A DNA stretch of 64,000 nt from Candidatus Saccharibacteria bacterium UBA6824 (GCA_002452155.1 DKEK01000006.1:22532-86531), one strand, 5' to 3'; shown: positions 14,170-43,802, counted from the first letter of the stretch. Notes: generated by a model from the letters alone, not told the origin. A program made the numbers and translations.

Positions 14170-16590
14170 CTAAAGATCGGTGTCCACACGCCCCGTCTCG
14201 ATCCAGTTGGAGCCGTTATAGCGGAAGCTAATGGTACGGCTCTTGGTGTCGGCGATGGTGGCGCCGAAGGCACCGTTTTTCAAGAAGGCGGCGTTGAAAG
14301 TGATCGGTCCGGTGAAAACAGTGCCACCGCCGATGCCGTTTTTGAAGATAAAGTCGAGCCTTCCGCCAACTGTCGTTCCGAGTGAGACGGGAGCGTTGAC
14401 CGTACGGGCTGCATTGACTGCGAAGGTCCAGGTGTGCAGGTAGGCTTTGGTCGGATCCGGGCTGCCCGATCCGGCATCCGTGACTGCGAACGTGCCCCTA
14501 CCCTGAATGAAGCCCGTCGCAGAGGCGTTGACGATCATGAATTGCCCTGCCGGAAAACCGAGGAGTCGGTTGTTATCGATGAACACATTGGTGGCAGCTG
14601 CATTAACCCAGATTCCGACAGTTTGTGTAGCGCCGCCGGTGTCGTAGATACGATTGTTGATAACGTGAATCTGGTCACAGGCGGCGTTGATGTATACTCC
14701 ATTGTTCTGAATATTCCGCCAGCCGTTGTCGAAAATACGATTCCCATCGATTGTCACTTCGGCAGGTTGGCCGCCGTTGCCGGCGCTCAGCGTAATTCCG
14801 CTTAAGCCAAAATAAGAAATTGAATTACCGCGGATTTCCAGATCCCTAAGCCGCGAAGTTAGGTCAATTCCACTGGCCGAGGATGAAGCCGAACGGGCGG
14901 GAGGGGCTGCGCCAAGCGACCCATCGGGGGTAGTAATTACGGCCGTGGTGGTCGTATTGTCGTTTATTGTGGTGACAAGTCCAAGTGTTCCCGCACCGCC
15001 ACCAGCTGTAGTCATATAGAGTTTTCGCTGGGTCACACCGTAAGGGCCGATGGGGATATTGTTGGCATTAATCTTGGTGTGAGAGGCATCGGCAGTAACT
15101 GGGGCACTTAATGGACTAGCACTAGTTTCTCCTGAGGCGGTAACAAATGTCACAGCTAAGCTATGGGCTCCGGCTGTAACCTGCCCAGGAGTTGAGTCGG
15201 AAACCAGAGCCGGTGCCGGCTGCTTGGGGGCGGTTTCTCCTAACAATATATTGTTAGCAACTATTATCCGCTTTGAAAATTGAACACCAGAGGCCACATT
15301 CTTACCAAGCTGTATACCACCACCGGTAGCACCAGGCTTCAAAGCGACTAGATTAGATGAAATAACAAAATCGGTTTCAGAGAAGTCATAGTTAAGGCCC
15401 AAGGTAATGCCGGCATTGCAATCAGTTACAACATTACCCGTAACTGTTGCCAATTTATCCTCTACATTAATTCCATAACCACAGTTCCTAACCACATTGC
15501 CAGTAATAGCGACTCTGGATCCCCAAGGAATTGGTAGGCCCTTGGTATTAACTAGTCCAATGCCGTAGGTCGCACAGCCTTCGACAACATTGCCCGAAAT
15601 TGTAATATCAGATGAAGAAGGCGGGCCGGTTTCATACACGATTCCATTAGATCCTGCACCACTCGTCCCCCGAACTACGCAATTCGTAACGCTCATACGG
15701 CCGCTATTTGAACCGGCGCAATAAATCGCAAAAGTGGGTACTCCGGTCACATGTACACCACTAATCTCGTGATCCCCCCAAAGACTGTCATTAGTTGAGT
15801 TTTGAGACGAACGAACGTTGATGCCGTTTCCGATACCGGCTCCAATCCGCATTGTGTCAACGACAGTACGTCCACCAATCCAGGTCTTAGTGCACATAGA
15901 CAGATCTATCGATGTATCGAGCGTGTTATAAATGTATACGTTAGAGATTCGGACTCCGTCGACGGTATACACGGCGAGGGCGGCAAAGTCAGTTCCTGGG
16001 CCGTTAACAGTCGCGTTCGTCATATCAATATAAAGATCAGCAATCTCGAAATTGGACAGACGATTATTGGCGCCGCTATTATCGTTACTGGTGTTAACGC
16101 GTAAAAAGCAGTTAGTACCAGTGCCCGTCTTAAACTTCATAATGGTTCCCATTCCAGTGCCAGTCAGCCGAACATTCGACGTATTGAGTGTTAGTTTACC
16201 GACAAGATATGTTCCTGCTGGAAAAAGAATTGTTCCGCCAGTTGAGGGAAGCGCGTTGATCGTGGCCTGAATCGCCGTTGTGTCGTCTGCTACTCCATTA
16301 CCTATAGCCCCATAATCCTTAACATTAAGAAAGAAGTCCCCCTTAGCAACGGCACTAATGTCAGAAGGGGTTAGGGCATCGGTCCCTCCTGTGGCGTGGG
16401 TAGCCTTATGGCTGGTCGAGGCGGCAGCTAGGTTGGCTCGCGCGGTGGTGGCATCAGTGGCACCAGTACCTCCCTTGGTTAGGGGGAGAGTCTTTTGGGT
16501 GCCGTCTGGGTTATGTTCTTGGTTTAGGAAGTCATTTAGAACATCGCCCCATTTACCGTCGTCTCCGCCAGGAGTAGGAAGACGGCTCAT
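14170..16590 (-). CDS. right-handed parallel beta-helix (pectate-lyase-3/tailspike-like) protein, family copy 1
   Basis: 806 aa with the conserved N-terminus MSRLPTPGGDDGKWGDVLNDFLNQEHNPDG. It has the pectate_lyase_3-type entry motif (NVKDYGAIGNGVADDTTAIQ) and many N/G/T-rich beta-helix coils. No signal peptide. Confidence 0.9.
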   Translation of the reverse strand: MSRLPTPGGDDGKWGDVLNDFLNQEHNPDGTQKTLPLTKGGTGATDATTARANLAAASTSHKATHATGGTDALTPSDISAVAKGDFFLNVKDYGAIGNGVADDTTAIQATINALPSTGGTILFPAGTYLVGKLTLNTSNVRLTGTGMGTIMKFKTGTGTNCFLRVNTSNDNSGANNRLSNFEIADLYIDMTNATVNGPGTDFAALAVYTVDGVRISNVYIYNTLDTSIDLSMCTKTWIGGRTVVDTMRIGAGIGNGINVRSSQNSTNDSLWGDHEISGVHVTGVPTFAIYCAGSNSGRMSVTNCVVRGTSGAGSNGIVYETGPPSSSDITISGNVVEGCATYGIGLVNTKGLPIPWGSRVAITGNVVRNCGYGINVEDKLATVTGNVVTDCNAGITLGLNYDFSETDFVISSNLVALKPGATGGGIQLGKNVASGVQFSKRIIVANNILLGETAPKQPAPALVSDSTPGQVTAGAHSLAVTFVTASGETSASPLSAPVTADASHTKINANNIPIGPYGVTQRKLYMTTAGGGAGTLGLVTTINDNTTTTAVITTPDGSLGAAPPARSASSSASGIDLTSRLRDLEIRGNSISYFGLSGITLSAGNGGQPAEVTIDGNRIFDNGWRNIQNNGVYINAACDQIHVINNRIYDTGGATQTVGIWVNAAATNVFIDNNRLLGFPAGQFMIVNASATGFIQGRGTFAVTDAGSGSPDPTKAYLHTWTFAVNAARTVNAPVSLGTTVGGRLDFIFKNGIGGGTVFTGPITFNAAFLKNGAFGATIADTKSRTISFRYNGSNWIETGRVDTDL

Positions 16591-16704
16591 AGTATATGAG
16601 CCTCATTAGAACTATTTAAGCTCTCTCTTTTTTCCTCTCTCTGAAGGTTTTTGGGTTTCACCTATTTATCCCTTATGGTTATTGGCTATAGGAAGATTAT
16701 AGCA
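16591..16704 (-). promoter_or_regulatory. promoter (TGCTATAAT, 16696-16704) and ~100-nt GA-rich leader of beta-helix copy 1
   Basis: Extended -10 sits 106 nt upstream of the ATG. Purine-rich tract at 16621-16643. The block AAAAACCTTCAGAG is shared with copy 3. Confidence 0.6.
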
Positions 16705-16733
16705 TTTTGGGGGGAATAGGAAAGAGGGGGATT

Positions 16734-17297
16734 CTAAACTGTCAGGATTTCTTGCTCTTTGGCGCGGGCGAGGCTTTCGACTTGAGTTTTTTGTTTAGCT
16801 ACCAGTTCGTCTATCTGTTTTTTGGATCGCTCCAGTTCGTCTTTGCCGATGGTTTTATCTTTTTCGGCTTGCTCGAGCTTGTGGAACGCATCGTGGCGGA
16901 CTTGACGGACAGACACAAAACAATCCTCGACTTTTTGGCCGATAATTTTGACCATGGCCTGGCGGTTTTCTTGGGTCATTGGCGGCAGATTGATGCGGAC
17001 AACCCGGCCATCGTCGGTAGGTGTTAAACCCAGGGATTGGTCATTTCGAATGGCTTCGGCGATAGGCTGCAAGTTGCTCGGATCAAAGGGAGTGATTTGC
17101 AGTAGCTGGGCCTCCGGGGCGATTATAGTCCCGACGGCTTTTAGGGGCATGGGCTGGCCGTAGGCCTCCACCATAATGCTATCCAGCATGCCCGGATGAG
17201 CTCGGCCGGTCCGCAGTTTTTTCAGCTCCTCCTGCAAATGAGCCGTCGCGGCGTCAATTTTCTTTCTGGCTTCTTCCAATATTTGAGCGGGGTTCAT
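16734..17297 (-). CDS. frr: ribosome recycling factor
   Basis: Frr similarity from MNPAQILEEARKK. TATAAT (17305-17310) lies 7 nt upstream of this ATG, so the 16-codon extension in the track ORF is probably untranslated. Confidence 0.92.
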   Translation of the reverse strand: MNPAQILEEARKKIDAATAHLQEELKKLRTGRAHPGMLDSIMVEAYGQPMPLKAVGTIIAPEAQLLQITPFDPSNLQPIAEAIRNDQSLGLTPTDDGRVVRINLPPMTQENRQAMVKIIGQKVEDCFVSVRQVRHDAFHKLEQAEKDKTIGKDELERSKKQIDELVAKQKTQVESLARAKEQEILTV

Positions 17298-17314
17298 TAG
17301 CTTAATTATATAAC

Positions 17315-17323
17315 AATTCTTTG
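17315..17323. repeat. target-site duplication AATTCTTTG (left copy)
   Basis: Identical 9-mer at 18878-18886, each directly abutting a terminal inverted repeat. Confidence 0.8.
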
Positions 17324-17404
17324 GGCGACTATCCCATGACAGCAAGTAACTAGACTAGCCCTCAAACCACGTACAGGGTCACACGTGTTCTGAGGGGATA
17401 TTTA

Positions 17405-17719
17405 CTAGGTATCTTCTTTTTCGTCTTCGTGTTGCATGTAATCCACGACAATCTCCACGATTTTTCTAACGGTTTCGTTACACTCCTTGAAAACCACTTT
17501 ATCAAGAACTTCAATCCCAAAATCTCTTATAGGCTCAGTTATCAGTGCGTGAATAAAAGACTGGGTTGCGTCTTCAACACCGCTAAAGTCAAGAGCAACG
17601 TCCTGCTTTTTCTTAAGGGCGGGGATGAGTCGGGTTTGGCGTATTTCTCTCGCAATATCTTTGTCCTGCGCGAATTTACCGGAAACTTTTTCTATACGAA
17701 TTATTACTCCTGTTACCAC
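17405..17719 (-). CDS. STAS-like (DUF4325-type) small protein
   Basis: 104 aa. The core VALDFSGVEDATQSFIHAL...VVFKECNETV matches my recollection of the DUF4325 pattern (v.lDF.gV...t.sF.....f.n.n..v). The GTG start overlaps the upstream stop by 1 nt. Confidence 0.7.
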   Translation of the reverse strand: MVTGVIIRIEKVSGKFAQDKDIAREIRQTRLIPALKKKQDVALDFSGVEDATQSFIHALITEPIRDFGIEVLDKVVFKECNETVRKIVEIVVDYMQHEDEKEDT

Positions 17720-18681
17720 TAGACGAATCTCGCTTTCCTATATTTAGATTTTCTTTTATCCTTAACACCCCCAGAGTAAACAGTTCCAATAAGGTTTAAA
17801 AGTGTTTGGAACTCACTCGTACTATTGAGGGAAATATCTACGGCAACGACCGTTCCTTGCCAAAACGGAAAATCATCACGCTCAGAATGTTTGTCTACGA
17901 ACGGGTCAGCATTAAGGAACCGCACAGGTTTAGAAGCGTTTCTAAGGTGTAGTTTATAAAAGCCCGTTCCACTATAAATCATGAAAAATGACCGATTAAT
18001 GTAGGCGATTGATTTTGTAAAGAAAAGTCCCGCCCCAGCATTTTCCGCCGTCCCTCCAACCCTTTTGGTAGTGCCGGTAATACCAGGAGTCAGAGATAAT
18101 CTTATAGCGGCAAGGTCAGTGGAGGTAGGGTAAGATTCGCTTATGCTTTCTCTTATCCCTATCCCCGTATCAACTATAGCCATGCGAAAAGTATTGCTCT
18201 TCTTGAAATATTGGGCACATAGAATTGCTCCTTGTTTAGATTTAGAGTGCTCAAATACATTTCTTACTACTTCGTAAATAACATAGCGTATAGATTTAGC
18301 CTGTTCAGCTGGAAGGTGAAGTGCAGGAATCATATCTTCCAAAAACTCCGAGAGTTGCTTCGAATTCTCTATGAGCTTGAGGGGGATAAATCTTCCCGCT
18401 GATTCGTGCTCTGAAATATGAGGCGGTTTTATTTTTAAAAACTCATACAACCCCATTCTTACTAAATAATGACCGGAGGTTGCTTCAATTGGCTCACATG
18501 TAATTTTTGCCTTGTCTACTTTCATACCTAGAGCGGCTACCATAGCTAGTACCACGGGGTGAACCGAGAGCCACTTTTTATTTGCAGTAACTTCAAGCTT
18601 ACCTGGCTCAGATGGGTCAAAACCAGCTATAAAGGCATCAATATTACCTATAAACGCACTGTTAGGAAGGTGAATTTTCAT
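17719..18681 (-). CDS. GHKL (histidine-kinase-like) ATPase with a ~140-aa N-terminal domain of unknown function
   Basis: N-box YEVVRNVFEHS, G1 box VDTGIGI and G2 box GAGLFF. The start is placed at MKIHL (ATG 18681) because TAAAAT lies 7 nt upstream. The track ORF extends to 18717. Confidence 0.8.
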   Translation of the reverse strand: MKIHLPNSAFIGNIDAFIAGFDPSEPGKLEVTANKKWLSVHPVVLAMVAALGMKVDKAKITCEPIEATSGHYLVRMGLYEFLKIKPPHISEHESAGRFIPLKLIENSKQLSEFLEDMIPALHLPAEQAKSIRYVIYEVVRNVFEHSKSKQGAILCAQYFKKSNTFRMAIVDTGIGIRESISESYPTSTDLAAIRLSLTPGITGTTKRVGGTAENAGAGLFFTKSIAYINRSFFMIYSGTGFYKLHLRNASKPVRFLNADPFVDKHSERDDFPFWQGTVVAVDISLNSTSEFQTLLNLIGTVYSGGVKDKRKSKYRKARFV

Positions 18682-18692
18682 ATTTCCCATTT

Positions 18693-18737: not shown

Positions 18738-18760
18738 TTTGCTAGAATAGAACATAGATT

Positions 18761-18841: not shown

Positions 18842-18877
18842 TTCAATCTGTTTACTTGCTATGAAGGGATAGTCGCC

Positions 18878-18886: not shown

Positions 18887-18889
18887 CCC

Positions 18890-19524: not shown

Positions 19525-19541
19525 CGAAAGGAGCCAAGAAA

Positions 19542-23875: not shown

Positions 23876-26311
23876 CTAAGGTATACCAACGACGGTCGGG
23901 GTCCGGGCACTGGTGCCGGAGTTCATTGCGGGAGTGGTCGGCGGCACGGGAGAAGCGGTGTCTTGGAAGCCAGAGAAGCCAGCCGCCGGCAAGCCATTGC
24001 TTGGGGTCGTCCCCTGGATCTGGGTGGTGTTTGAGGCGACACCGACCGCGATCCAGTCGCCGGTGTTGATCCGGACCGCGGCGTTGAGCGCGACTTGGTT
24101 GAAGTTGTTAGCGTTGGCTGTGGTCGAGACCGAGACCGCCTTTTGCGTGCCCGGCACAGCACTTCGACCCGAGCCGGTGCCAGAGTAGACGGCCACTGCG
24201 ATCTGGTCGGTAGTGCCGGGAGTGGTGGAATCGATCGTGCCAATGTAGACGCCGATCTTTGAGCAGAGACCGCCCCCGGAGGTGACACGCACGTATAAGA
24301 TCCGGTTAGCGGCCCCGAGACTGCTCATAGCGGTGGTCGTTCGGGGATCGACCGCTATCGGCGCCCCGAGGCCTAGCGGGTCACGGTAATCGAGGCGGTA
24401 GAACTGGGCTCCGTTGGTGCCATCAGAGACCTCGCCGGTCAGATTGCCGGCAAAATCGTCGTTGACCGAGCGCACGCTCGTGGCAGTGGCATCGACCCGC
24501 AGGCCATAAGTCTGGAGTTTGGGGCCGCGGGTGTCGTAGCACTTGTTATGCGCCAGAGCGATGTCATTGCAGCCGGGATCGAGAGCGATACCGACCTGGT
24601 TTTGGATACTCCCACCATTGGCGGTGTTGTTGTCGATGCAGTCGTTACCGCGGATCCGGCCAACCGTCGGGGCTATGCCGCCGCTGGCCTCTAGGTAGAT
24701 CCCCGAGCGACCAAAGCCACGGACGGTGTTGTCGGTGATGTCAAAGTCGATAATCCTTCCGCTCGCCCGGATGCCGTAGGACGAGGTGGTGGTCAGTTGG
24801 CCATCTACTTGGTTGCTGCGAATCTGGAGCCGGCGGAGGTAGTTGGTCCCGACCCCCTTGGGGATATATATACCGCTGCCATTGCCGTCGGCGGCCATCA
24901 CCACAGTATTATCGTTGATGGCAAAATCGGTTTCTTCAACATCGAGATTGTTCCCCGCTTCGATCCCGATCCGGCAGTTGGAGATGACATTGTTGGAGAC
25001 CCGGACCATTTCACCGTGGGCCACTATTCCCCGCAGGCTGCCGGATGATGCGACGCCGAACTCGCTCGTCCCATCCTTGCCCCTAATTATATTGTCGGCC
25101 AACAAATACCGATGCGCGTAAATGACCCCCGACCCCGAGCTGTTCTCTGCGGCCACGCCGTGGTCGGAGAAGTCGGAGACGACATTGTTGGTGATCTGCA
25201 GGTCAAAGGCTCCTGGGGAGCCGACCTCAGCGCTAATCGCGCCGAAACAACCCTGGCTCAAATTATGGGCGGCGATCAACCTGAAGGCGTTAAGGCTGCC
25301 AACATAGATATTTTTGTCGGCCTGAACCGTAAGCGTGCCCCCGGTAGCAGCCGACGGGGTGGAGCCTATAGTAGCGGTGAAAGTCGTCGGAGACGGGACG
25401 GAGGCCACGCTTCGGTACCCGTTATAGGCTGGCACACTCACCCCGGTGACCTTGATCGGTTGTCCCACGCTCATCTTGTGGGCCGTCGATGTTGTGAAGG
25501 TGGCGACCCCGCCGCTCGCCGTCGCGGAGCTGATCGCGACGGTGGTCGTATGCTTGATGAAGCAGTGGTCGAAGATCACATCTTCTGTGTCGAGAGATGC
25601 ACCGGCCTGGGCATTGAGGGGGTTGGAGGCGCCCTGCCAGTAGCAGGTGTCGGCGGTGATGAAGGAGAAGCGAACCATGGTGCAAGAGTGGGTAGCAACA
25701 CAGTAATCGCGGCCATTGATGACGAGCAGGTGGTCGTAGTTAACGCCGTCGGTCGCATAGGACTGGATAGCTCCCGGGATCCCCCCGGCTGCCCAGGTCT
25801 GATCGCCGCCGTTGGCGTTGACGGCCAGGTTTTTGATCGCGAAGTTTTTGCGGCGTGGAGGGGTACTGCTTGAGCTGGAATTGCAGCGGATGACGTTGCG
25901 GACGCCGGTGGCGCCCGGCTTGAGGGTGATGACACTGGCCGGTCCTTCGCCGGCGATGGTAACGTTATCGATATCGATGGTGACGGTGCCCGAGATGAGA
26001 TAGTTACCGCGGGGGAAGTAAAGGGTCGCGCCGCCTGCCGGAATGGCGGCAATAGCGCTATTGATCGACGCAATGTCGTCAGTCACCCCGTCGCCTTTGG
26101 CTCCGTAGTCTTTGACGTTGATGACAAGGTCGCCTCTGCCCACGACATTAAGGTTGGTTCTAGCGGTTGGGGCATCAGTCGCTCCAGTACCGCCCTTACC
26201 TACTGAAAGAGTTTTCTGGCTACCGTCTGGGTTATGTTCTTGGTTTAGGAAGTCATTGAGGATGCCTCCCCAGGTGCCATCGTCTGAGCCGGGGGTTGGT
26301 AGTCTAGACAT
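23876..26311 (-). CDS. right-handed parallel beta-helix (tailspike-like) protein, family copy 2
   Basis: 811 aa with N-terminus MSRLPTPGSDDGTWGGILNDFLNQEHNPDG and the entry motif NVKDYGAKGDGVTDDIASIN. GC-rich, with many shadow ORFs. Convergent with prmC. Confidence 0.9.
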   Translation of the reverse strand: MSRLPTPGSDDGTWGGILNDFLNQEHNPDGSQKTLSVGKGGTGATDAPTARTNLNVVGRGDLVINVKDYGAKGDGVTDDIASINSAIAAIPAGGATLYFPRGNYLISGTVTIDIDNVTIAGEGPASVITLKPGATGVRNVIRCNSSSSSTPPRRKNFAIKNLAVNANGGDQTWAAGGIPGAIQSYATDGVNYDHLLVINGRDYCVATHSCTMVRFSFITADTCYWQGASNPLNAQAGASLDTEDVIFDHCFIKHTTTVAISSATASGGVATFTTSTAHKMSVGQPIKVTGVSVPAYNGYRSVASVPSPTTFTATIGSTPSAATGGTLTVQADKNIYVGSLNAFRLIAAHNLSQGCFGAISAEVGSPGAFDLQITNNVVSDFSDHGVAAENSSGSGVIYAHRYLLADNIIRGKDGTSEFGVASSGSLRGIVAHGEMVRVSNNVISNCRIGIEAGNNLDVEETDFAINDNTVVMAADGNGSGIYIPKGVGTNYLRRLQIRSNQVDGQLTTTSSYGIRASGRIIDFDITDNTVRGFGRSGIYLEASGGIAPTVGRIRGNDCIDNNTANGGSIQNQVGIALDPGCNDIALAHNKCYDTRGPKLQTYGLRVDATATSVRSVNDDFAGNLTGEVSDGTNGAQFYRLDYRDPLGLGAPIAVDPRTTTAMSSLGAANRILYVRVTSGGGLCSKIGVYIGTIDSTTPGTTDQIAVAVYSGTGSGRSAVPGTQKAVSVSTTANANNFNQVALNAAVRINTGDWIAVGVASNTTQIQGTTPSNGLPAAGFSGFQDTASPVPPTTPAMNSGTSARTPTVVGIP

Positions 26312-26426
26312 AGTCTAAGCTCCCACCTGCGGTGCTGGTAAAGTTCTCTCTCTCTCTCTCTCTCTGGATTTTAGACATAGCTGTTGGTTTTTACCTTCCT
26401 CATGGTGCTTGAGGTTATTGTAGCAT
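26312..26426 (-). promoter_or_regulatory. promoter (TGCTACAAT, 26417-26425) and leader of beta-helix copy 2
   Basis: Extended -10 sits 106 nt upstream of the ATG. The 61-nt block 26366-26426 matches 43742-43802 with 2 mismatches. Confidence 0.65.
26345..26365 (-). repeat. (GA)10 dinucleotide repeat in the 5' leader of beta-helix copy 2
   Basis: Perfect TC x10 on the plus strand, 34-54 nt upstream of the ATG at 26311. Confidence 0.95.
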
Positions 26427-32525: not shown

Positions 32526-35500
32526 CTAGTACTTGATTATGTAGTTCAGTGTGAGGTAAGCCCCGCTGTCGAGTGGCGAGCCGGTTGGTCCGATGGTGAC
32601 ATTGCTGTGCGTACCGCTGCCGTCGTTTCTCGCCACGGCGTTGTTCCCATCGCCACAACAGTCCACCGTATCGAGAAGATGATGAGACTTTGGGGTGCGA
32701 TTTGCAAGTGTGGCCCCCTCATTATTAGCAAGAGCATTGACGTCGGTGTTGGAAGAGTTGAGTCCAACCGGCGCTCGACCCCGCAGGTCGGGGAGATTAA
32801 AGGTGGTAGAACCATCACCCACCCCGTAGGTCGTGCCGACGACAGCGAAGAGAGAGGCATAGGTTGTTCGCGAGACGGCCGAACCATCGGCAAGCAGGTA
32901 ACCCGTCGGGGCGCTCGACCCGGCAAAAGGCACAACTGTTCCGGCCGGATTAATCACGGCGCTGCCGCTGAGATCACTCCAGGTACCGCTGGCACAGCCA
33001 CGGAAGGTACCGGAATTGGAGTTATAGTAGATGGCACCGTCGATACAGGTAGGATCACCAGAGGTGTTTTTATTGCCCAGCACCAGCAAAACCGGCGTCG
33101 AGCCGGCAGCACCCAGCGTAATCTTGGAATTGGTGGTGTCGACGCTAAACAAGCTGGCAGTCGAGGTGTTCTGAATCTGGAAAACAGCAGTATTATCAGT
33201 ACCCGGTTTGACAATTACGCCGCCCGTAGCACCCGCCGGGCTAAGGTTAATGTTGCCGGTGCCGGACTGAAGAAGAAGTGAACTGGCAGCTACGGTGGAG
33301 CCAATGGTGATGACGTTTTTGCCAGTGGAAGTAGCTGTAGCACCGATGTTAATGGTGTTGGTGTTGCCTGAAGCGACATTGCCGTTACCAATGTTTATGG
33401 TTTCGCCGGCGGTGGATCGGCCAAAAATTAGGCTGCCAGTGTTAGCCGTAGAGCCCACTGTTACAGTATTGACGTTGGTAGTGCCAATGGAGATAGTGCC
33501 CGAGGTGCCAGCACTCAGGCCAATCGCACTAGCACCAGTACCACCTTGAATGGTCGTGGCCGAAGTGCCGAGTAAATTGCCGATAGTTACATTGGTAGTT
33601 GAGGAAGCAGTGGCGTTGTTGCCAACGTTGACGGTTTGGGCAACAGCTCCGGTAGTAGTTCCAATCTGTACTGTGCCAGCTATGCCGCCGTTGCCTAGCT
33701 CAACTGAGGCGCCGGAGGTATTGACCAGCAGATAGTTGTTGCCGGCCAAGTTTTGAATCCGAAAAGCAGTAGTGGAATCGGCCGCATTTTGGGCCAAAAA
33801 TGTGCCACTGAATTTGTTATTACCGGTGAAGGTCTGCGGGCCGGTGCCGTTTAGCAGAGCGACATTACCAGAGAGTCTAGCATCAGCTACCGTACCAGAG
33901 CTTATGTTCGAGCCGTTGAGACTGGTTAGCGAAGCACCAGAGCCGGAGAAAGTGCCGGCAATGGCCGTGCCGGAGATGTTGAGGTTGCCGGTTTGAGCAG
34001 AACCTGGGGTAGAACCTTGTAATTGAACATAGCCACTACCGCCAATTGATGGAGCATAGCCAGAACAGACAGAGCCAGTCGTACAAATGATGCCGGTTTC
34101 GGCCGGCAGGGTGAGACTGAAGGTGCCCGCCCCAGGATTGGCAGCTTGGAGGGAAATATTACCAGAACCACCGGAGTTATAGAGGGTTAAGTTACCGGTA
34201 AGGGTTGAGGCTTTACCTAAAACTACCCTGGAGCCAGAGGTGTCCACCAGCAGCAGTTCATTGCCGGCCAGGTTTTGAATCCTAAAGGCAGTGGTGGAGT
34301 CGGCCGCGTTTTGGGCCAAAAATGTGCCACTGAATTTGTTATTACCGGTAAAGGTTTGCGGGCCGGTGCCGTTTAGCAGAGCGACATTACCAGATAGACG
34401 GGCGTCAGCTACCGTACCAGAGCTTATGTTGGAGCCGTTGAGACTGGTTAAGTTAACTCCGGAAACAGCTGGCAATTGGGTCGAGCCATTTAACTGAACA
34501 AGTTGCGAGGCCCCGTTAAAGCTGTTGCCCTGCAGTGTGACATTAGAGCTCAGGCGAATATCAGCCACTGTCCCCGAGCTTAGGTTGGAACCGTTTAAAT
34601 TAGTTAGGCTGGCGCCGTTGCCAGAGAATGTACCAGCGATAATAGTGCCCGAAACATTGATATTGCCAGTTTCCTGAGTTCCCGGCGTGCTAGCTTGCAA
34701 GCTGACGCAGTTGCCGAAGGCACAGCTGCCGGTACCGGGTGGACCGGCTGGACCGGTTGGACCGGTGGCGCCATTAGTACCATTTGTGCCAGCGGTACCC
34801 GTGGCGCCGGCTGGACCGGTGGCACCAGGGACACCGGTGGCGCCGGTTGCACCCTGAAGACCTCCCGCGCCAGTGGGACCGCTGCCGGTACAGCCGGTGG
34901 CTGTACAGACCAATACTTTATTAATAGTAAGGCCGGAGTTATTGAGGGAGCTGGTACCGCCGGAGGCAGCCAGACTGCCGCTGGCGGTGAAGCCGCCACT
35001 CAGTTGTAATACACCAGTGGTTGGTTCTGCGACCAGTTGGCCGAGTGTCAGGTTTTTGCCCTTGGCCAGGACGGTGTCGAGGTTTAGGGTCAGCTGGCCG
35101 CCTTTGGTGCTCAGGAGGGCGGAGTCGCTGGCTTGGGAACTTAGGTCGGTGGCCGGCGGTTTATTTTGGCGTAGCAGGCCGGAAAGGGCGAAGGCACCAG
35201 AGACTAAAGCTATGAGTGCCACAAAAGCCAGGCCTACAAAGATTGGCCGGTGGAAAAAAAGACCTGTTCGTCGGGGACCACTGCCCGAATCTTCGATGCC
35301 GCTGTTTACAGGGGCCGACGTAGCTTCCCCCAGCTCAGGAACGGCGGCTAGAGGCACCGAAGTTAATTGATTAATTAAGGAGGGGTGAAGCGGCGGTGTA
35401 CCTATAACCGTTGGCGGGCTAGCCGGCGGCTGCCAGGAGTTTTCCAGCTGCCGCCAGTCAGTGGGGCTGGGGTGGTTGTTGGCAAGGGGTGGTGCGGGAA

Positions 35501-35951
35501 ATGGCGTAGTCTCGAGTGATTTAATTTCTGAGGTTGTGGATGGCGCCCAAGACGGCGCTGCTGCCGGTTGAGCCGGGGGCGCCTCAGACAGAGGTTGGAC
35601 TGGAGATGACGGTGGTGCCTGAGGGGTGGTAAGGGTTGAGGGTGAGGTAATTGCTTGGGAGTTCTCAAAACCGGCCCACCCGGGTAAATCGTCTTCAGCC
35701 ACCCCAGTGCTACTATCGTAATTATCTATGGGCGCTTCCGCTATGGCCGGCGCCAAGGCCCGTAGGCCTAGTGAGCCTTTTAGCTCATCCTCTAATTGCG
35801 CTCCCAGCCGGGCCAGCTTATCGGGCGCAAGCTTGATCGCCTGGCTGGCTCTAAAGACGCGTTTTCGGCAACGCGCCGAACAGACCTTGGCATTGGGCCG
35901 GCCTTCAAACTGCTCATTGCAACCTGGACATAGCTTAGTTTTGGGAGCCAT
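32526..35951 (-). CDS. 1141-aa membrane-anchored fibre protein: N-terminal zinc ribbon, Pro-rich linker, TM helix, collagen-like Gly-X-Y tract, repeated fibre modules, phage tail-collar domain
   Basis: CPGC...CSARC near the N-terminus and the TM segment IFVGLAFVALIALVSGAFAL. GXY repeats are encoded at ~34731-34885. The tail-collar-type motif PFAGSSAPTGYLLADGS...TTFNLPDLRGRAPVG is encoded at 32763-32948. Confidence 0.85.
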   Translation of the reverse strand: MAPKTKLCPGCNEQFEGRPNAKVCSARCRKRVFRASQAIKLAPDKLARLGAQLEDELKGSLGLRALAPAIAEAPIDNYDSSTGVAEDDLPGWAGFENSQAITSPSTLTTPQAPPSSPVQPLSEAPPAQPAAAPSWAPSTTSEIKSLETTPFPAPPLANNHPSPTDWRQLENSWQPPASPPTVIGTPPLHPSLINQLTSVPLAAVPELGEATSAPVNSGIEDSGSGPRRTGLFFHRPIFVGLAFVALIALVSGAFALSGLLRQNKPPATDLSSQASDSALLSTKGGQLTLNLDTVLAKGKNLTLGQLVAEPTTGVLQLSGGFTASGSLAASGGTSSLNNSGLTINKVLVCTATGCTGSGPTGAGGLQGATGATGVPGATGPAGATGTAGTNGTNGATGPTGPAGPPGTGSCAFGNCVSLQASTPGTQETGNINVSGTIIAGTFSGNGASLTNLNGSNLSSGTVADIRLSSNVTLQGNSFNGASQLVQLNGSTQLPAVSGVNLTSLNGSNISSGTVADARLSGNVALLNGTGPQTFTGNNKFSGTFLAQNAADSTTAFRIQNLAGNELLLVDTSGSRVVLGKASTLTGNLTLYNSGGSGNISLQAANPGAGTFSLTLPAETGIICTTGSVCSGYAPSIGGSGYVQLQGSTPGSAQTGNLNISGTAIAGTFSGSGASLTSLNGSNISSGTVADARLSGNVALLNGTGPQTFTGNNKFSGTFLAQNAADSTTAFRIQNLAGNNYLLVNTSGASVELGNGGIAGTVQIGTTTGAVAQTVNVGNNATASSTTNVTIGNLLGTSATTIQGGTGASAIGLSAGTSGTISIGTTNVNTVTVGSTANTGSLIFGRSTAGETINIGNGNVASGNTNTINIGATATSTGKNVITIGSTVAASSLLLQSGTGNINLSPAGATGGVIVKPGTDNTAVFQIQNTSTASLFSVDTTNSKITLGAAGSTPVLLVLGNKNTSGDPTCIDGAIYYNSNSGTFRGCASGTWSDLSGSAVINPAGTVVPFAGSSAPTGYLLADGSAVSRTTYASLFAVVGTTYGVGDGSTTFNLPDLRGRAPVGLNSSNTDVNALANNEGATLANRTPKSHHLLDTVDCCGDGNNAVARNDGSGTHSNVTIGPTGSPLDSGAYLTLNYIIKY
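33741..33928 (-). repeat. internal repeat copy A of the fibre gene
   Basis: ~190 bp nearly identical to 34263-34450 (period 522 bp). Encodes ...NGSNISSGTVADARLSGNVALLNGTGPQTFTGNNKFSGTFLAQNAADSTTAFRIQNLAGN. Confidence 0.9.
34263..34450 (-). repeat. internal repeat copy B of the fibre gene
   Basis: See 33741-33928. Confidence 0.9.
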
Positions 35952-36000: not shown

Positions 36001-36020
36001 TGTGAACATCTTTAAGTATT

Positions 36021-36071
36021 AAGCATAAGCGTCCCGTTGTCAAGAGTTACGGAACGTTTTTGTCCCGCTTT
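36021..36071 (+). repeat. 51-bp direct repeat copy 1, containing a plus-strand terminator-like hairpin + T5
   Basis: Identical to 36214-36264 (period 193 bp). Hairpin CGTCCCGT/ACGGAACG at 36030-36056, followed by TTTTT. Confidence 0.85.
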
Positions 36072-36213
36072 GGCAGGCACCTTAGTTGGTTGGCTTGATT
36101 GCACCGGATCTGCGCCCTCATTTTGGGCCAGCTTAGCGGCTCCCTAGGGCCGCCCGCTTCCTTGCTCTTTGACAGACGGGTTTTCAAGTAACCTGTAGGG
36201 AATAAGACAGTAT

Positions 36214-36264
36214 AAGCATAAGCGTCCCGTTGTCAAGAGTTACGGAACGTTTTTGTCCCGCTTT
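36214..36264 (+). repeat. 51-bp direct repeat copy 2, containing a plus-strand terminator-like hairpin + T5
   Basis: Identical to 36021-36071. Confidence 0.85.
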
Positions 36265-39568: not shown

Positions 39569-39609
39569 AATGGTATAAATTGTAGCTTAAAACAGATACA
39601 AAGGATAGG

Positions 39610-39939: not shown

Positions 39940-39991
39940 AAAGCTATTGTAGCACTCCAAATAAAGCCTTACCCCCTAAAATTTAGTGCTA

Positions 39992-40020
39992 TTGCTTATT
40001 AAGGCACTAAATATTATAAT
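39992..40020 (+). promoter_or_regulatory. promoter TTGCTT-17-TATAAT
   Basis: Hexamers at 39992-39997 and 40015-40020. A 9-bp inverted repeat ATTTAGTGC/GCACTAAAT (39981-40012) brackets the -35. Confidence 0.6.
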
Positions 40021-40123
40021 ATGCTTGTCTTGAGGTGTTCGCTGGCAGTTCTTCCGGTGAACGCACCCCAACAAGATCCCTCCGGAGATTGGGCTAATCT
40101 CTAGTGCTCCGAAAGGACGAGTC

Positions 40124-40474
40124 GTGAAGAATAACTCGATTTGTATCGCGGTATACGCGCTTCTGGGTCTGGGCTTTGCCCTCAGCGTCGGTCTGCCGCC
40201 AAGCATCGCTGCGGCGGCGGCGGTTGGCGGTGGTCTGTTGGGCATCTGCGTCATGCTGGACCCCTTCAGGGCTTACATCGTTGGCTGGGTGACCTTCTGG
40301 GTGACCGTCAGTCTCGCCATCACCAACTACGTATTCGGCTTTGGCCTCGGGCTGATGACCGTTTTCGCGGCCGCAACACTGGTCGTTTCCGCTGTCGTCG
40401 GCTACGTGCTGCCCACCGTGGTTTTCGCCGGTCTCGTCGGTCATCGCTATGAAGACGAGATTCGTTACGGCTAA
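40124..40474 (+). CDS. small polytopic membrane protein (GTG start), unknown function
   Basis: 116 aa with 4 hydrophobic Gly/Ala/Val-rich segments. GC-rich. It has its own promoter and terminator. Confidence 0.55.
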   Translation: MKNNSICIAVYALLGLGFALSVGLPPSIAAAAAVGGGLLGICVMLDPFRAYIVGWVTFWVTVSLAITNYVFGFGLGLMTVFAAATLVVSAVVGYVLPTVVFAGLVGHRYEDEIRYG

Positions 40475-40511
40475 GCGCCTACCGTCCGCTCAGCGAAGAA
40501 ACGGACGTTCT

Positions 40512-40550
40512 GCCCCCAACTGTATTGCCAAAAGCAATGCAGTTGGGGGC
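40512..40550 (+). terminator. long-stem terminator hairpin
   Basis: 17-bp stem GCCCCCAACTGTATTGC / GCAATGCAGTTGGGGGC (one G-T pair), loop CAAAA, followed by a T-rich tail. Confidence 0.6.
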
Positions 40551-40584
40551 CTCTTAATTTATTATCACCTTAGCTTTGGTCGTC

Positions 40585-40719
40585 TCAAGAGCAGCCGGTT
40601 GTGGAACCGCAGGAAGTACAGACATAGCAGCTGCCGGCTCTTTGGGTTTGGTTACCGCAGTTGTAGCATAGCGGCGCAGCGTCATCTAGGCGGATAGTAT
40701 CCTCCTTTGGCTCAGGTGG
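40585..40719 (-). pseudogene. orphan duplicate of the nrdJ 3' end (last 44 codons + stop)
   Basis: Encodes PPEPKEDTIRLDDAAPLCYNCGNQTQRAGSCYVCTSCGSTTGCS*, identical to the C-terminus of the intact nrdJ (43867-44001). The frame is closed directly upstream by TGA (40720-40722) and has no start codon. Confidence 0.85.
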
Positions 40720-40721
40720 TC

Positions 40722-41432
40722 AGAGGACGTTCCTCTATAGGTGTTAATCTATGCTAGTTTAATTCAATAATTAGCTAACTGGTATTTAAATTCGCTTAGC
40801 ATGTTTTTTTGCTCTTCGTAATCGGCTACGAATTTTAGGTAATCTGCTCTGGAAGCAAATAGTTTTAAAGCCATCGAGGTATTGAGCCACTGCGGCTCGT
40901 GTCCGGCCAGGTAATAATTGAGGCTTGAGAAGCGATAGTTTCGCCATAGTCTAGGGTTAAGATGTATGTAACGGGTGATGTGTTGCAGGTATGAGTCGTT
41001 GTCGAGCCTGACGGCTTTATAGCGGCTTTCGAACAAAGGCCCGCTGCGCTGGTATTTAAGGTTGAAATAACGGCTGTAGCTGGTCATTAAACTGCGCATT
41101 AGCTTCTCCAGATAAGGCACGTCTTTTTGATAAACCAGCAGGTGCAGATGGTTGGACATAAGACAGTAAGCCAGCAATTGCACCCTGCCCCGATAGTGCG
41201 GGTATGGCTCGCCGGTTTTACTGAGTGCTGATTTGTTAGACAGGTATCTTTCAAACAAAGCCAAAAAGTACTTATAGTCGGCTGCTTCGAGAAATATCTT
41301 TTGTTGGTTAGCTCCCCTAGTGTAAATGTGATAGTACGAGTCGGGAGCTTGTTCTTTATTAACATTGCGCGATGGCATGGAGCAATTATACTGAAACTAG
41401 CACCAAATTACACCTATAGAGGAACGTCCTCT
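40722..41432. mobile_element. RAYT-type unit: Y1 (HUH) transposase gene flanked by perfect 22-bp inverted, hairpin-forming repeats
   Basis: AGAGGACGTTCCTCTATAGGTG (40722-40743) is the exact reverse complement of 41411-41432. Each end contains the hairpin AGAGGA-CGT-TCCTCT. Confidence 0.75.
40764..41378 (-). CDS. REP-associated tyrosine (IS200/IS605-like Y1, HUH) transposase
   Basis: 204 aa with YHIYTRG, the HUH motif in CLMSNHLHLLV, and the catalytic Tyr context RYIHLNP. Confidence 0.85.
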   Translation of the reverse strand: MPSRNVNKEQAPDSYYHIYTRGANQQKIFLEAADYKYFLALFERYLSNKSALSKTGEPYPHYRGRVQLLAYCLMSNHLHLLVYQKDVPYLEKLMRSLMTSYSRYFNLKYQRSGPLFESRYKAVRLDNDSYLQHITRYIHLNPRLWRNYRFSSLNYYLAGHEPQWLNTSMALKLFASRADYLKFVADYEEQKNMLSEFKYQLANY

Positions 41433-41462
41433 AAATTCCTTAAACGTCCTCTAAATTCCTTA
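41423..41462. repeat. 2 x 20-bp tandem repeat AACGTCCTCTAAATTCCTTA overlapping the right inverted repeat
   Basis: Two exact adjacent copies. The first 10 nt of each unit equal the terminal 10 nt of the inverted repeat. Confidence 0.9.
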
Positions 41463-41488
41463 AATTATTTCATCTGTTAGTTCGTTGG

Positions 41489-43660
41489 TCATACGGTTGA
41501 TGAATCCACGATCAGGCCGGTCGCCGCAAGCGCGGTCAGCAGCGACGCCAGGGCTGCGTTCCCTCCGCGCGATCCTGTGACGGTCTGCTGCGTTGCTGTC
41601 GCGTGGTTGTAAAAGCCGAGATTCGCGCCAAGATGCCGAAGGTCGAGGGTAACGTGGAGCGAGTCGTCCGTCTTGAGCACGTCGGCGGCACTGCGGTAGA
41701 GGATCGTGTCGAGGGAACCCGCGCCACTACCCCATCGGATCGCACCGTCAGCGCGAAGCAGCCAGCGGGCGAAGCCGTCGCCAGTAACGAGTCCCTGAAG
41801 CTGTGTGGAGGTTGAGAGAGCGCCAGTGGCCGAGATGAGTGCCCCTGACCCCAAAGAGAAGACACCACTGACCGGATTGAGCGTGAACATACCCACCCCG
41901 GCATTGCGAATCGTAATTATGCCGTCGTGACTAAAATTGACAAGATTGTAAGTTCCAGTGCTCGACTGGAACTGCACTATATCAGAGGTTTGCCCCCCGG
42001 TTTTTTCACGGAATATGACCGGCACCACATCTGCGGTGGGCACGACAATTTGGGGCGTCGAAGGTGACAAGAGCACTGACGACAGCCGGGGATCAGTGGT
42101 TCCCACCGCTGCAACCCATCCGGTCTTGCCCGAACCGGTTTCCTTTACGTAGAGCGATGTCGATGCACCGCCATCGGTGCGACTGTACGCGGAGCCAACG
42201 GGGGCATACAGTACGCCTTCAGGCGAGCCACTACCAATCGCCTCCCGCACAAACCCAGCAGGCGGGGCCATCCCAAGACCGGCGCCACTTTCAACCTCGC
42301 GGTAGTCACGAATTACGCAGTTCAGGAAAACGTCGGGGTCGGCAAACGCGCCTGATCCCACCAGCATCCCCAATGTGACACGGCTATTGTTCGCCTGTTC
42401 GATTACCCCTGAGATCACGCACCCGTCGATTGTGTGACCGCGCGCAACATTGTCAGGGGATCCATCGGCGTTGATTTTTGCGAAAGCGACCCCCTCGGTG
42501 AAAGCCGCACCCGCCGTGCCGATAATATTTTTCAGGTTGACGGTGATCCTGATGTTCCTGTAAACGAGCGCGGTCGTACTGGTGAAAGACACAAGGATGG
42601 GGGCTGCTCCTTGGATACTCCCATCGCTCTCACGGTCATAGTAGTTCAGGGTGATGTTTTCAACCGAGTCGGTGTAACCAACTTTCGAGCTGTTCGACTG
42701 GTTCTTCGCTCTGACAGTAACCTCGTGATTCTTGGCTCCGTACACGAAGTAGGCACGACCTGGGCTGTCGGCATCTACCATCGCCACTAGGTCATCCCCG
42801 GAGTTCTGACAACTCAGCGGATAGAAAGTAAGACTTGTCTTGATGCGCGCATTGATTTGCCGACTCTTATAACTGTCAGGGTCTGAAATGGCCTTTTGGA
42901 ACGCGACGCCAGCACGACCGCCGATTAGTTCCACGTCGAGGTTGATGCCCACACAACCCTGGTAGAACATGAGCAGGTCACGACCCACCTGGCCGTTGCC
43001 GCTGGAGACATCCTGGGACGTGAACTTGAGCCTACCAATGTCGATGTTGTTGCAGGCGCTGAAGCCAAAAAGCACGCCGACCTGTGATCCCGTGAAGGTG
43101 TAGGTGTCGGCAATGCTCGCACCTGACCCCCAGATTTTGATGCCGCGAAGGTTTGTGAAGAGATAGAGAGTAGCGAGACCTGACACCTTGTAAGTGCCTG
43201 CGTCGGGAAAGAACAAGGTGCCACCACCGGAAGCCTGGAGGGCTGCGCACGCCGCAGTTATCGCAGTCGTATCGTCAGCAACGTTATTACCGACCGCACC
43301 GTAAGCTTTGACATTAAAGACTTGGGAGCCTTTGTCTAAGAAAGTGCCGGCATTAAAGGTTTTAGTTCCGGTAATAGTTTCAGTACCAGCCAGGTGAACC
43401 ACAGCCGAATCAGTCGCTTTGGCGGCTAGGTCTGAGGTTAAGTTAGTGATTTTAGATTCAGAGATGACTGAAACATCGGCGTCGGTGATATTAAGAGCAG
43501 CTAGTTTTGACTTAACAATAGCAGCCGTGGACGCTACCTTGGCATTGGTAATAATTCCGTCTTTGAGCGTGCCGTCTGGGTTATGTTCTTGGTTTAGGAA
43601 GTCATTGAGGATGTCTCCCCAGGTGCCATCATCAGAGCCGGACTTTGGTAGTCTAGACAT
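41489..43660 (-). CDS. right-handed parallel beta-helix (tailspike-like) protein, family copy 3
   Basis: 723 aa with N-terminus MSRLPKSGSDDGTWGDILNDFLNQEHNPDG and the entry motif NVKAYGAVGNNVADDTTAIT. The C-terminal motif is LGFYNHATATQQTVTGSRGGNAALASLLTALAATGLIVD. GC-rich. Confidence 0.9.
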   Translation of the reverse strand: MSRLPKSGSDDGTWGDILNDFLNQEHNPDGTLKDGIITNAKVASTAAIVKSKLAALNITDADVSVISESKITNLTSDLAAKATDSAVVHLAGTETITGTKTFNAGTFLDKGSQVFNVKAYGAVGNNVADDTTAITAACAALQASGGGTLFFPDAGTYKVSGLATLYLFTNLRGIKIWGSGASIADTYTFTGSQVGVLFGFSACNNIDIGRLKFTSQDVSSGNGQVGRDLLMFYQGCVGINLDVELIGGRAGVAFQKAISDPDSYKSRQINARIKTSLTFYPLSCQNSGDDLVAMVDADSPGRAYFVYGAKNHEVTVRAKNQSNSSKVGYTDSVENITLNYYDRESDGSIQGAAPILVSFTSTTALVYRNIRITVNLKNIIGTAGAAFTEGVAFAKINADGSPDNVARGHTIDGCVISGVIEQANNSRVTLGMLVGSGAFADPDVFLNCVIRDYREVESGAGLGMAPPAGFVREAIGSGSPEGVLYAPVGSAYSRTDGGASTSLYVKETGSGKTGWVAAVGTTDPRLSSVLLSPSTPQIVVPTADVVPVIFREKTGGQTSDIVQFQSSTGTYNLVNFSHDGIITIRNAGVGMFTLNPVSGVFSLGSGALISATGALSTSTQLQGLVTGDGFARWLLRADGAIRWGSGAGSLDTILYRSAADVLKTDDSLHVTLDLRHLGANLGFYNHATATQQTVTGSRGGNAALASLLTALAATGLIVDSSTV

Positions 43661-43802
43661 AGTCTAGACCTCCAGCTGCAGGGCTGTTTAAGCTCTCCCT
43701 CTGAAGGTTTTTCTGGGTGGGTAAGAGTGTGTGGGTGTGTGGGATTTTAGACATAGCTGTTGGTGTTTACCCTCCTCATGGTGCTTGAGGTTATTGTAGC
43801 AT
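43661..43802 (-). promoter_or_regulatory. promoter (TTGCAG-16-TGCTACAAT, -10 at 43793-43801) and ~125-nt leader of beta-helix copy 3
   Basis: The extended -10 and the 61-nt leader block are shared with copy 2. The AAAAACCTTCAGAG block is shared with copy 1. SD GGAGG lies 10 nt before the ATG. Confidence 0.65.

Follow-up and report, generated by a model that had tools for sequence, protein, structure and literature searches.

Chromosomal phage-spike-like genes with a short conserved head in a Candidatus Saccharibacteria genome

Introduction

The receptor-binding proteins (RBPs) of phages, including those of Klebsiella phages, the tailspikes of P22, Sf6 and HK620 and the BppU/BppL proteins of TP901-1, are modular proteins in which a conserved N-terminal attachment module precedes exchangeable beta-helix or fibre bodies, and in the depolymerase RBPs of Klebsiella phages a short conserved N-terminal peptide provides the anchor or docking function (Latka et al. 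2019, PMC6872550). Here, three genes, A, B and C, are described in a 64-kb stretch of DNA from Candidatus Saccharibacteria bacterium UBA6824 (GCA_002452155.1 DKEK01000006.1:22532-86531), one strand of which was analysed; this whole stretch is referred to as the window and all coordinates are counted from its start. Like the phage RBPs, the three proteins combine a conserved N-terminal module, termed the head, with exchangeable beta-helix or fibre bodies, and the family to which they belong has necks of the BppL_N, T4 gp10 and GGTGAT types, no signal peptide and breakpoints at the module border. Unlike the RBP genes of phages, A, B and C lie scattered on the chromosome between essential genes and have promoters of their own, the head matches none of the described anchor domains in Pfam, NCBIfam and PDB, and the family is overwhelmingly cellular with its centre in the Patescibacteria. 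On balance, A, B and C are best read as cell-encoded, phage-like surface spikes with a short docking or export head and not as prophage genes, a reading which draws on the anatomy of the genes, the size and taxonomic range of the family, the cellular context, a linkage to tat genes in other genomes and a footprint of gene conversion.

Equally relevant is export by hitchhiking on twin-arginine translocation (Tat), an established mechanism with HybOC, DmsAB and PaoABC of E. coli as examples (PMC4273604, PMC6708511). As in these systems, a signal-less folded protein is encoded, in other genomes that carry the head, beside a small partner with an S-R-R/K-x-F-L motif and a hydrophobic segment, within or near a tat operon. 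Unlike in these systems, the partner is only about 65 amino acids long, has no globular domain and a motif that is mostly RK, and would probably stay in place as a membrane anchor, while the putative cargo consists of large fibrous proteins; no tat genes are present in the window. The vlp/vsa genes of Mycoplasma, pilE/pilS of Neisseria and vls of Borrelia constitute multigene families of variable surface proteins with a conserved 5' end. The likeness of A, B and C to these families extends to a promoter, leader and N-terminus common to paralogues ahead of divergent bodies, to conversion between copies, to a simple repeat in the leader and to a small host-dependent genome; different from these families, there is no signal peptide or lipobox, there are no silent cassettes as all three genes have promoters, no variation in repeat length occurs in five assemblies, and the products are enzyme-like beta-helices and not repetitive antigens. 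Finally, beta-helix enzymes of the PF12708, AlgE and GH28 types share fold and entry motif with A, B and C.

Cultivated Patescibacteria live attached to other bacteria, with Actinobacteria as the known hosts of cultivated Saccharibacteria. Type IV pili aside, we know of little that has been learned about the molecules with which Patescibacteria recognise or breach the surface of their host.

Three spike-like proteins with one head

Gene A (14170-16590, 806 amino acids), gene B (23876-26311, 811 amino acids) and gene C (41489-43660, 723 amino acids) are open reading frames (ORFs) on the minus strand, located as in a preliminary description of this DNA, and their products are named 'hypothetical protein' in the databases. 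The N-termini (MSRLP..G.DDG.WG..LNDFLNQEHNPDG) are near-identical over 33 residues in all three, with the similarity between A and B running on to approximately residue 54 and C departing after residue 33. In A, the head (residues 1-33, codons at 16492-16590, minus strand) is followed by a GGTGAT..ARxNL fibre motif (34-56), a neck, a right-handed beta-helix with an inserted domain and a beta-rich C-terminal module. Protein B has the head, the GGTGAT fibre motif, a beta-helix (modelled at 61-220 and 370-620) interrupted by an inserted domain that corresponds to phrog_9998 (249-329) and a C-terminal module, and in C the head (1-33) is succeeded by a BppL_N-like helical neck (a weak match), a beta-helix entry (115-173), a body unlike that of A and B and a C-terminal module (625-700).

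The pectate-lyase-like beta-helix entry that had been noticed in all three proteins was recovered as PF12708 (Pect-lyase_RHGA_epim) on the minus strand at 15913-16332 in A (residues 87-226, 55.1 bits), at 25889-26122 in B (residues 64-141, 65.1 bits) and at 43142-43318 in C (residues 115-173, 28.9 bits), so that all pass the Pfam gathering threshold of 27 bits, C barely. The preliminary description had further considered the bodies to diverge completely, which holds for C; the bodies of A and B are homologous, with 27-37% identity over residues 289-452/335-505 and 569-683/508-627. Within the C-terminal module of C, around 50 residues show 60-67% identity with parts of three other head-bearing proteins (P0086, P0044 and P0087), and the recurrence of this module in otherwise unrelated proteins shows that mosaic shuffling affects the C-terminal end as well. 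All three proteins match PHROG tail-spike families (best E value 1e-25). Equally, the entry motif NVKDYGAxGDGxxDDTxAIQxAI and the fold match PF12708, AlgE-type and GH28-type enzymes, but as NCBIfam equivalog models are missed by a wide margin (34 bits versus a cut-off of 500), no specific enzyme activity can be claimed.

Structural models, calculated for monomers with AlphaFold2, are in line with this anatomy. The model of B has a mean predicted local distance difference test score (pLDDT) of 53, with the beta-helix (61-220 and 370-620) at pLDDT 70-93 and a helix at residues 14-25 of the head, and covers neither the insert nor the C-terminus; used as a Foldseek query it retrieved AlgE epimerase modules and the tailspikes of Pam1, Sf6, HK620 and CBA120 as well as phi29 gp12, at E values of 1e-7 to 1e-5. 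The fold search rests on B, as the model of C is poor (pLDDT 46) and of use only for the head (pLDDT 73-77, with the same helix as in B) and the beta-helix entry. In the models the head consists of an extended segment and one subsequent helix.

In agreement with the initial reading, none of the three proteins has a signal peptide: no hydrophobic segment is present at the N-terminus (maximal Kyte-Doolittle mean over 19 residues in the first 60 residues at most 0.96), the heads are net acidic with a single arginine, and a twin-arginine signal peptide (S/T-R-R-x-F-L-K followed by a hydrophobic region), as expected for a direct Tat substrate, was not found on A, B or C themselves.

A cellular neighbourhood

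Each gene lies downstream of a co-oriented essential gene, as had been proposed, namely the ribosome recycling factor gene frr for A, an HtrA-type protease gene for B and the class II ribonucleotide reductase gene nrdJ for C, with rseP, prmC and an IS200-like element, respectively, on the other flank. The window codes for SecA, several aminoacyl-tRNA synthetases, RseP, ribosome recycling factor, EF-Ts, S2, RF1, PrmC, HtrA, an LCP protein, signal peptidase, ParAB, NrdJ, NrdR, FtsZ, FtsA, MAP, PriA, Fmt, IF2 and S1. Integrase, terminase, portal, capsid and tail genes were looked for across the 64 kb and none was found, so that the window does not qualify as a prophage region and A, B and C have no tail or baseplate module nearby. 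Apart from A, B and C, the only phage-like items in the window are the Tail Collar domain of an ORF at 32526-35951 and an IS200-like Y1 transposase. The window matches NCBI assembly GCA_036804945.1 and JGI contigs, and three to five independent assemblies are 100% identical at A, B and C.

The slot between htrA and prmC is kept in a Saccharibacteria metagenome-assembled genome (MAG; locus L069) with 59% HtrA identity and a head gene of different length, and in another MAG (L020) frr, uppS and rseP follow each other with no head gene in between. In L069 (5995-7631) the gene in the slot is split into a head-and-neck ORF of 173 amino acids and a beta-helix ORF of 320 amino acids, by frameshift, as a pseudogene or through an assembly error.

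A very large and undescribed head family

The head can be summarised by a consensus of approximately 33 residues, M-S/A-R-L-P-x-P-G-x-D-D-G-x-W-G-D-I-L-N-D-F-L-x-x-x-H-N-x-D-G-x-L/Q-K. A word-indexed protein search with a single head sequence returned just 8 proteins, all short and none of them A, B or C, so that a profile search was needed; a profile of ten heads was searched exhaustively against 1.84 billion representatives of clusters at 50% identity. Instead of the 'three-copy family' of the preliminary description, 6,635 clusters were retrieved at E<=1e-3 and 4,565 at E<=1e-10, with the match nearly always starting at residue 1 of proteins of 54 to 2,474 amino acids. The head thus defines a very large, undescribed and Patescibacteria-wide family of which A, B and C are three local members. 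No match of the head was obtained in Pfam, NCBIfam or PDB, where a described particle-binding N-terminal domain would be expected to appear, and no description of the head family was found in the literature.

Genomic loci were confirmed as 288 stretches with one genome per species, and the analyses of head genes in their genomic context rest on the best 78 of these. Almost all of the 78 derive from Saccharibacteria (Saccharimonadales) and other Patescibacteria (Levyi-, Parcu- and Woesebacteria), the outsiders being Gordonia aichiensis, a Limnocylindrales MAG and a Rhizobiaceae bin; at the Gordonia aichiensis locus (L042) there is no clear prophage context. The closest relatives are likewise MAGs of Saccharibacteria and other Patescibacteria, in line with the candidate phyla radiation (CPR) origin that had been presumed for the sequence. 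Many genomes carry several head genes, often in tandem arrays. Among the 78 loci, heads are approximately 60-80% identical across phylum-level lineages with bodies that cannot be aligned, and this combination suggests constraint by a conserved external partner.

The bodies found behind the head constitute a phage receptor-binding toolbox. Among 108 representatives most have no Pfam domain; those domains that are present comprise BppL_N (12), PF12708 (10), GDSL (7), DUF5907 (5), polysaccharide deacetylase, T4 Gp10_C, BNR, GH39, CBM5/12 and collagen, and the GGTGAT..ARxNLG motif after the head matches the solved tail fibres 7z47 and 8vbx. The organisation into a conserved head on variable phage-spike-like bodies, first noticed in these three genes, therefore extends far beyond this genome.

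Recurrent linkage to tat genes

Clustering of the ORFs of all 78 loci identified TatC as the one recurrent non-head family, present in 24 of the 78 (Pfam E values 1e-39 to 1e-56). When the two genes closest to each head gene are tallied (124 proteins), TatC leads the Pfam families with 17 occurrences, the runner-up has 3, and no phage structural family is among the 25 commonest. Between tatC and the head gene sits an ORF of around 65 amino acids, in which an amphipathic N-terminal part leads to the motif S-R-[KR]-E-F-L, a single hydrophobic helix and a tail of the form GYGSSAYGG[KR]. Of the 79 head genes with sufficient flanking sequence, 16 have this peptide encoded upstream at a distance of no more than 800 nt; the head proteins behind it range from 187 to 1,439 amino acids, and its stop codon abuts the head start in L015, L025 and L050. 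The arrangement of tatC, peptide and head gene (or tatA) can be seen in L006 (4720-6001), L015 (4760-6001), L025 (4942-6001), L050 (4626-6001) and in metagenome loci L084-L161.

In the reciprocal direction, 78 metagenome loci anchored on the peptide were inspected, of which 71 could be scored downstream and 53 upstream. A head start follows within 300 nt in 23 of the 71 and TatC precedes the peptide in 37 of the 53; in many of the remaining loci the next gene codes for a typical TatA. The peptide family comprises 1,486 clusters at 90% identity, all unnamed ('hypothetical'), 59-90 amino acids long and without a Pfam domain, and as no description could be found in the literature, the peptide would seem to be a part or substrate of patescibacterial tat operons that has so far gone undescribed. 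The occurrence of TatA and TatC in Saccharimonadia has been reported (PMC9166423). The tat-operon linkage is the strongest clue to a partner of the head, and it is correlative; the search for a partner co-varying with the head has thus brought up a recurrent tat operon with a small Tat-signal-like peptide in other genomes, and not the common surface structure that had been proposed earlier.

From these observations a mechanism may be outlined. Lacking a signal peptide, the spikes would fold in the cytoplasm, and the head would serve as a common handle for export, for docking on a shared partner at the cell surface, or for both. Behind the head, a phage-like neck would lead to a right-handed beta-helix or another glycan-binding or glycan-cleaving body with variable C-terminal modules, and these variable bodies might serve to recognise or cut polysaccharides on the surface of the bacterium that hosts the epibiont. 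Each gene would be expressed from its own TGCTAYAAT promoter with a long purine-rich leader. The best candidate partner would be the Tat translocase for folded proteins together with the Tat-signal-like single-pass membrane peptide of about 65 amino acids, whose coding position directly upstream of head genes, in between a quarter and a third of the loci in other genomes, suggests a route of hitchhiker plus anchor, and Tat-linked hitchhiker export of head proteins is plausible. Placement at the surface, glycans as targets, docking by the head and export through Tat are all inferred by us from this combination of features. More specifically, the head might form the docking module on the cargo side of a hitherto unrecognised Tat-dependent 'hitchhiker and anchor' system of Patescibacteria, in which the peptide would bind the head, carry folded phage-derived spikes through TatAC and tether them at the membrane; this proposal is put forward tentatively and is rather to be doubted than relied upon.

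The head on phage and viral spikes

Clear head homologues are also encoded by the Streptomyces phages BRock (gp186) and GiJojo (gp34) and their relatives, with GiJojo gp34 consisting of a head and a PF12708-like beta-helix. Among viral contigs (IMG/VR), the pattern WGD[IV]LNDFL, which is present in 48 of 88 genomic heads, had 0 matches in 2.9 million contigs, whereas a looser head pattern matched 9 contigs. The idea that the head is absent from viruses, held while the two first viral scans remained empty, was consequently dropped for the statement that it is rare in viruses. True head homologues (for example MSRLPTVGADSNTWGAVLNDFLSVAHNADGSIK) occur on spikes in UViG_3300005471_000027 and UViG_3300037071_004542. 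Within structural modules, a head-bearing beta-helix spike of locus L178 (544-4467, minus strand) follows the order portal, scaffold, major head, neck, major tail and tape measure, and one in L171 (6283-8016, plus strand) stands after terminase, portal, protease and major head and before a tail fibre gene, so that in these two loci the head is the N-terminus of a probable virion spike. The viral-contig spikes and those of BRock and GiJojo resemble A, B and C in having the homologous head and then the same PF12708-type entry; they differ in that two sit in a structural module by tape measure or head proteins, and the Streptomyces phage genes in a tRNA-rich region outside the tail module. The viral heads represent a slightly divergent subtype with A, I or T in place of D16, and neither the peptide nor TatC was found in the nine viral loci. 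The phage heads are situated where a virion-docking N-terminus would be expected, sometimes directly before the beta-helix, which fits a short docking peptide as in the RBP systems of Klebsiella phages (PMC6872550). The earlier statement that phage genes are missing stands for the window, which is purely housekeeping; it does not stand for the head, which is carried by spikes in a few viral structural modules and in Streptomyces phages.

Cell-surface spikes or components of a particle

A number of observations weigh against cell-surface spikes with a Tat-linked head. The peptide motif is mostly RK (98 of 120) and RR in just 19 of 120. Genes for TatC, TatA and the RR peptide are all absent from the window, and this genome's tatC or RR peptide was not found among the best 120 matches. 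Approximately three quarters of head genes are located away from tat and two thirds of the peptide loci have no adjacent head gene, while gene tables of cultivated Southlakia contain no entry 'TatC' or 'twin-arginine translocase'. AlphaFold2 confidence for the head is only moderate (pLDDT approximately 60-77). Furthermore, a two-hexamer sigma-70 scan did not call the promoters of A, B and C, which are assigned by their extended -10 only and were missed because their -35 elements are weak. Most importantly, the head also occurs on spikes within real phage structural modules without the peptide, and its native partner may therefore be a phage tail component.

The last point keeps alive the main rival, namely that the head is a virion-docking peptide and that the dispersed genes supply alternative RBPs in trans to a prophage, a tailocin or a similar particle elsewhere in the genome. 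The spikes of L178 and L171, the BRock and GiJojo homologues and the make-up of bodies and necks as phage RBP modules are in its favour, and the lack of a signal peptide is normal for virion proteins. We nevertheless regard service to a phage or tail-like particle as unlikely: it meets neither a phage structural gene within 64 kb nor a phage structural family among the commonest neighbours at the 78 loci, the canonical head pattern is missing from the viral contigs that were scanned, the genes have their own promoters next to essential genes with one slot kept between genomes, and the recurrent tat linkage would be left unexplained.

Of slightly lower probability still is that the head acts as an element of self-assembly, as a nucleus of trimerisation or folding or as a cap that has no dedicated partner, with the tat adjacency reflecting inherited synteny or an insertion preference and export occurring by an unrelated route. 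A segment of 33 amino acids, modelled as one helix and a turn, which works in front of many body types including those of phages, would suit such a role, and the positions behind frr, htrA and nrdJ might indicate that 'downstream of an essential operon' is a general rule. Not readily accommodated are the high identity of the head across phylum-level lineages next to unalignable bodies, the presence of TatC as a neighbour about five times more often than any other family and the abutting of peptide stop and head start in several lineages.

Recombination at the head

As described before, a 35-bp stretch (CCGTCTGGGTTATGTTCTTGGTTTAGGAAGTCATT) is identical in the three genes, at 16502-16536 in A, 26223-26257 in B and 43572-43606 in C, covering codons 19-30; it occurs exactly three times in the window versus 0 times in shuffled sequence. 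Codon usage at identical residues changes abruptly at its border. In codons 2-18, the same codon is used by A and B in 2 of 12 and by A and C in 1 of 11 cases, versus 11 of 12 and 12 of 12 in codons 19-30 (Fisher p = 6e-4 and 1e-5), with B and C agreeing throughout the head. From this we infer a conversion tract of 35 nt that links A to B and C.

A function of the stretch as a nucleic-acid element, such as the target of a regulatory RNA or a recombinase site, is quite improbable. Its identity in three paralogues despite saturated synonymous sites in the flanks between A and B/C would agree with such an element, but 87 heads from other genomes make use of all synonymous alternatives (N19 with AAT 63 and AAC 24 times, L22 with six codons), which suggests a short genome-specific conversion tract and not a universal nucleotide signal, and paralogue pairs elsewhere show a weak excess only (52% versus 43%, p = 0.03). 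Neither Rfam nor an exact search for the 35-mer in the metagenome collection gave a match; a universal nucleotide motif was rejected on these grounds.

The leaders and heads of B and C constitute a common 5' module that differs in the middle of the leader and precedes unrelated bodies, which points to transfer of the 5' module. Leader and head are also common to paralogues in some other genomes, with breakpoints inside the head, and most likely act as a recombination handle at which the family diversifies. The head is thus a generic N-terminal module on many unrelated bodies, a result that the preliminary description had itself listed as speaking against its reading; the sharing of leaders is a feature within genomes, seen in this one and in some others. 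Gene conversion, to which the preliminary description had attributed exchange between the copies, has left its footprint in codons 19-30, but the conversion detected homogenises the head and does not swap bodies.

Directly after A, with its ATG 1 nt past the stop codon, lies a frameshifted 5' stub of a head gene (ATGCTCTAGACGCTCCCGGCAGTGACGATGGCACATGGTGATACATCCTC, 14119-14168, minus strand) of 50 nt, which resembles B and C and looks like the scar of a deleted tandem, fourth copy. A hairpin, GCTGTC-TAGC-GACAGC, followed by a T-rich run (14103-14118, minus strand) after the stub is, as read from the sequence, the probable terminator of A. Directly downstream of C, an IS200-like Y1 transposase gene (PF01797, E value 3e-9; 40764-41378, minus strand) may bear on the arrival of the C body behind a B-like 5' module. 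The stub, the split gene of L069 and the transposase next to C could be taken to mean that A, B and C are decaying, either as relics of former prophages or as phage genes gained horizontally, and have no present function in the cell. Such a reading is very improbable, since the three ORFs, 723-811 codons long, are intact, have Shine-Dalgarno sequences and strong -10 motifs and are fully identical across independent assemblies, and since the head is under strong purifying selection in thousands of clusters.

Promoters and leaders

The extended -10 motif TGCTAYAAT that had been reported ahead of each gene is present on the minus strand as TGCTATAAT at 16696-16704 for A and as TGCTACAAT at 26417-26425 for B and at 43793-43801 for C, the last preceded at 16 nt by TTGCAG, which may be a -35 element; for all three, the assignment as a promoter is by the motif. 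Five copies of TGCTAYAAT occur in the window versus 1.0 expected, two of them outside the family, at 39946 ahead of IleRS and at 62295, so that this is a common strong -10 element of the organism and not specific to the family. The copy of TGCTACAAT at 39946-39954 (minus strand) is positioned approximately 380 nt upstream of the IleRS start (39568), with a leader that gave no T-box match in Rfam at the gathering threshold.

The leaders, for which 100-130 nt had been estimated, measure 105 nt in A (16591-16695), 105 nt in B (26312-26416) and 132 nt in C (43661-43792) from the -10 element to the ATG, all on the minus strand and purine-rich, and a Shine-Dalgarno sequence is present ahead of each gene. 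The leader of A has diverged far from the other two. Between B and C the first 60 nt or so after the -10 element are approximately 97% identical and the last 45 nt or so, together with the 33 head codons, are again alike; the middles differ, B having an (AG)n tract where C has a CA-rich insert, and the B leader has a 5' hairpin, CCTCA-N7-TGAGG. Both leaders contain an upstream ORF (uORF) that starts with ATG, of 24 codons in B (26304-26378, minus strand; MSKIQRERERENFTSTAGGSLDYV) and of 33 codons in C (43653-43754, minus strand; MSKIPHTHTLLPTQKNLQRESLNSPAAGGLDYV), which keeps its frame across an indel of 27 nt and ends in a TAG stop that overlaps with codons 2-3 of the main ORF. The uORF has a start (ATGTCTAAAAT) similar to that of the main gene (ATGTCTAGACT); a well-placed Shine-Dalgarno sequence is lacking for both uORFs, and A has no uORF.

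A structured or riboswitch-like leader was considered and rejected because the window has 0 Rfam matches and the leaders do not fold more stably than shuffled sequences (z-scores -0.17, -0.95 and -1.51). Equally unsupported is phase variation at the (AG)n microsatellite of the B leader (21 nt, 26345-26365, minus strand), as its length does not vary among five assemblies of the B locus and three assemblies each of A and C are also identical, although consensus assemblies hide minority variants. In L011, one head gene has a (CT)n run in its leader.

A further fibre-like gene in the window

A fourth tail-fibre-like gene, without the head, codes for a protein of 1,141 amino acids (32526-35951, minus strand) with a cysteine-rich N-terminus, a proline-rich linker, one strong transmembrane helix (residues 237-255), collagen-like repeats, repeated fibre segments and a C-terminal Phage Tail Collar domain (PF07484, E value 6e-24); a member of its cluster is named 'microcystin-dependent protein' in one source. 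This protein shows that the organism makes membrane-anchored fibre-like proteins with phage-type domains. Upstream of this gene, a perfect direct repeat of 52 nt (36020-36071 and 36213-36264, 193 nt apart) contains in each copy, on the minus strand, a promoter-like TTGACA-N17-TATGCTTA. The intervening 140 nt or so have no ORF assignment and no Rfam match and may represent a small RNA or a duplicated promoter.

Implications for the biology of epibiotic bacteria

Taken as a whole, the initial interpretation of A, B and C as interchangeable spikes of an epibiotic cell is supported in part. The head and the phage spikes are homologous, and the modules are shared with phages, of which at least some (BRock and GiJojo) infect Actinobacteria; this homology suggests an exchange of modules between epibionts and phages.

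A family of thousands of clusters, which has so far gone without annotation, brings the receptor-binding architecture of phages into cellular genes. Its handle of 33 residues can be searched for, tagged and mutated, and the head profile provides a ready marker for cataloguing candidate determinants of host specificity in CPR genomes. If the linkage to Tat and the peptide is functional, it would constitute a new route by which large folded fibres are exported and anchored. In that case it would also give redox-poor, ultrasmall and metabolically minimal epibionts a reason to retain Tat and would equip them with a plug-in surface armoury with which to recognise and cut the cell-wall glycans of their hosts.

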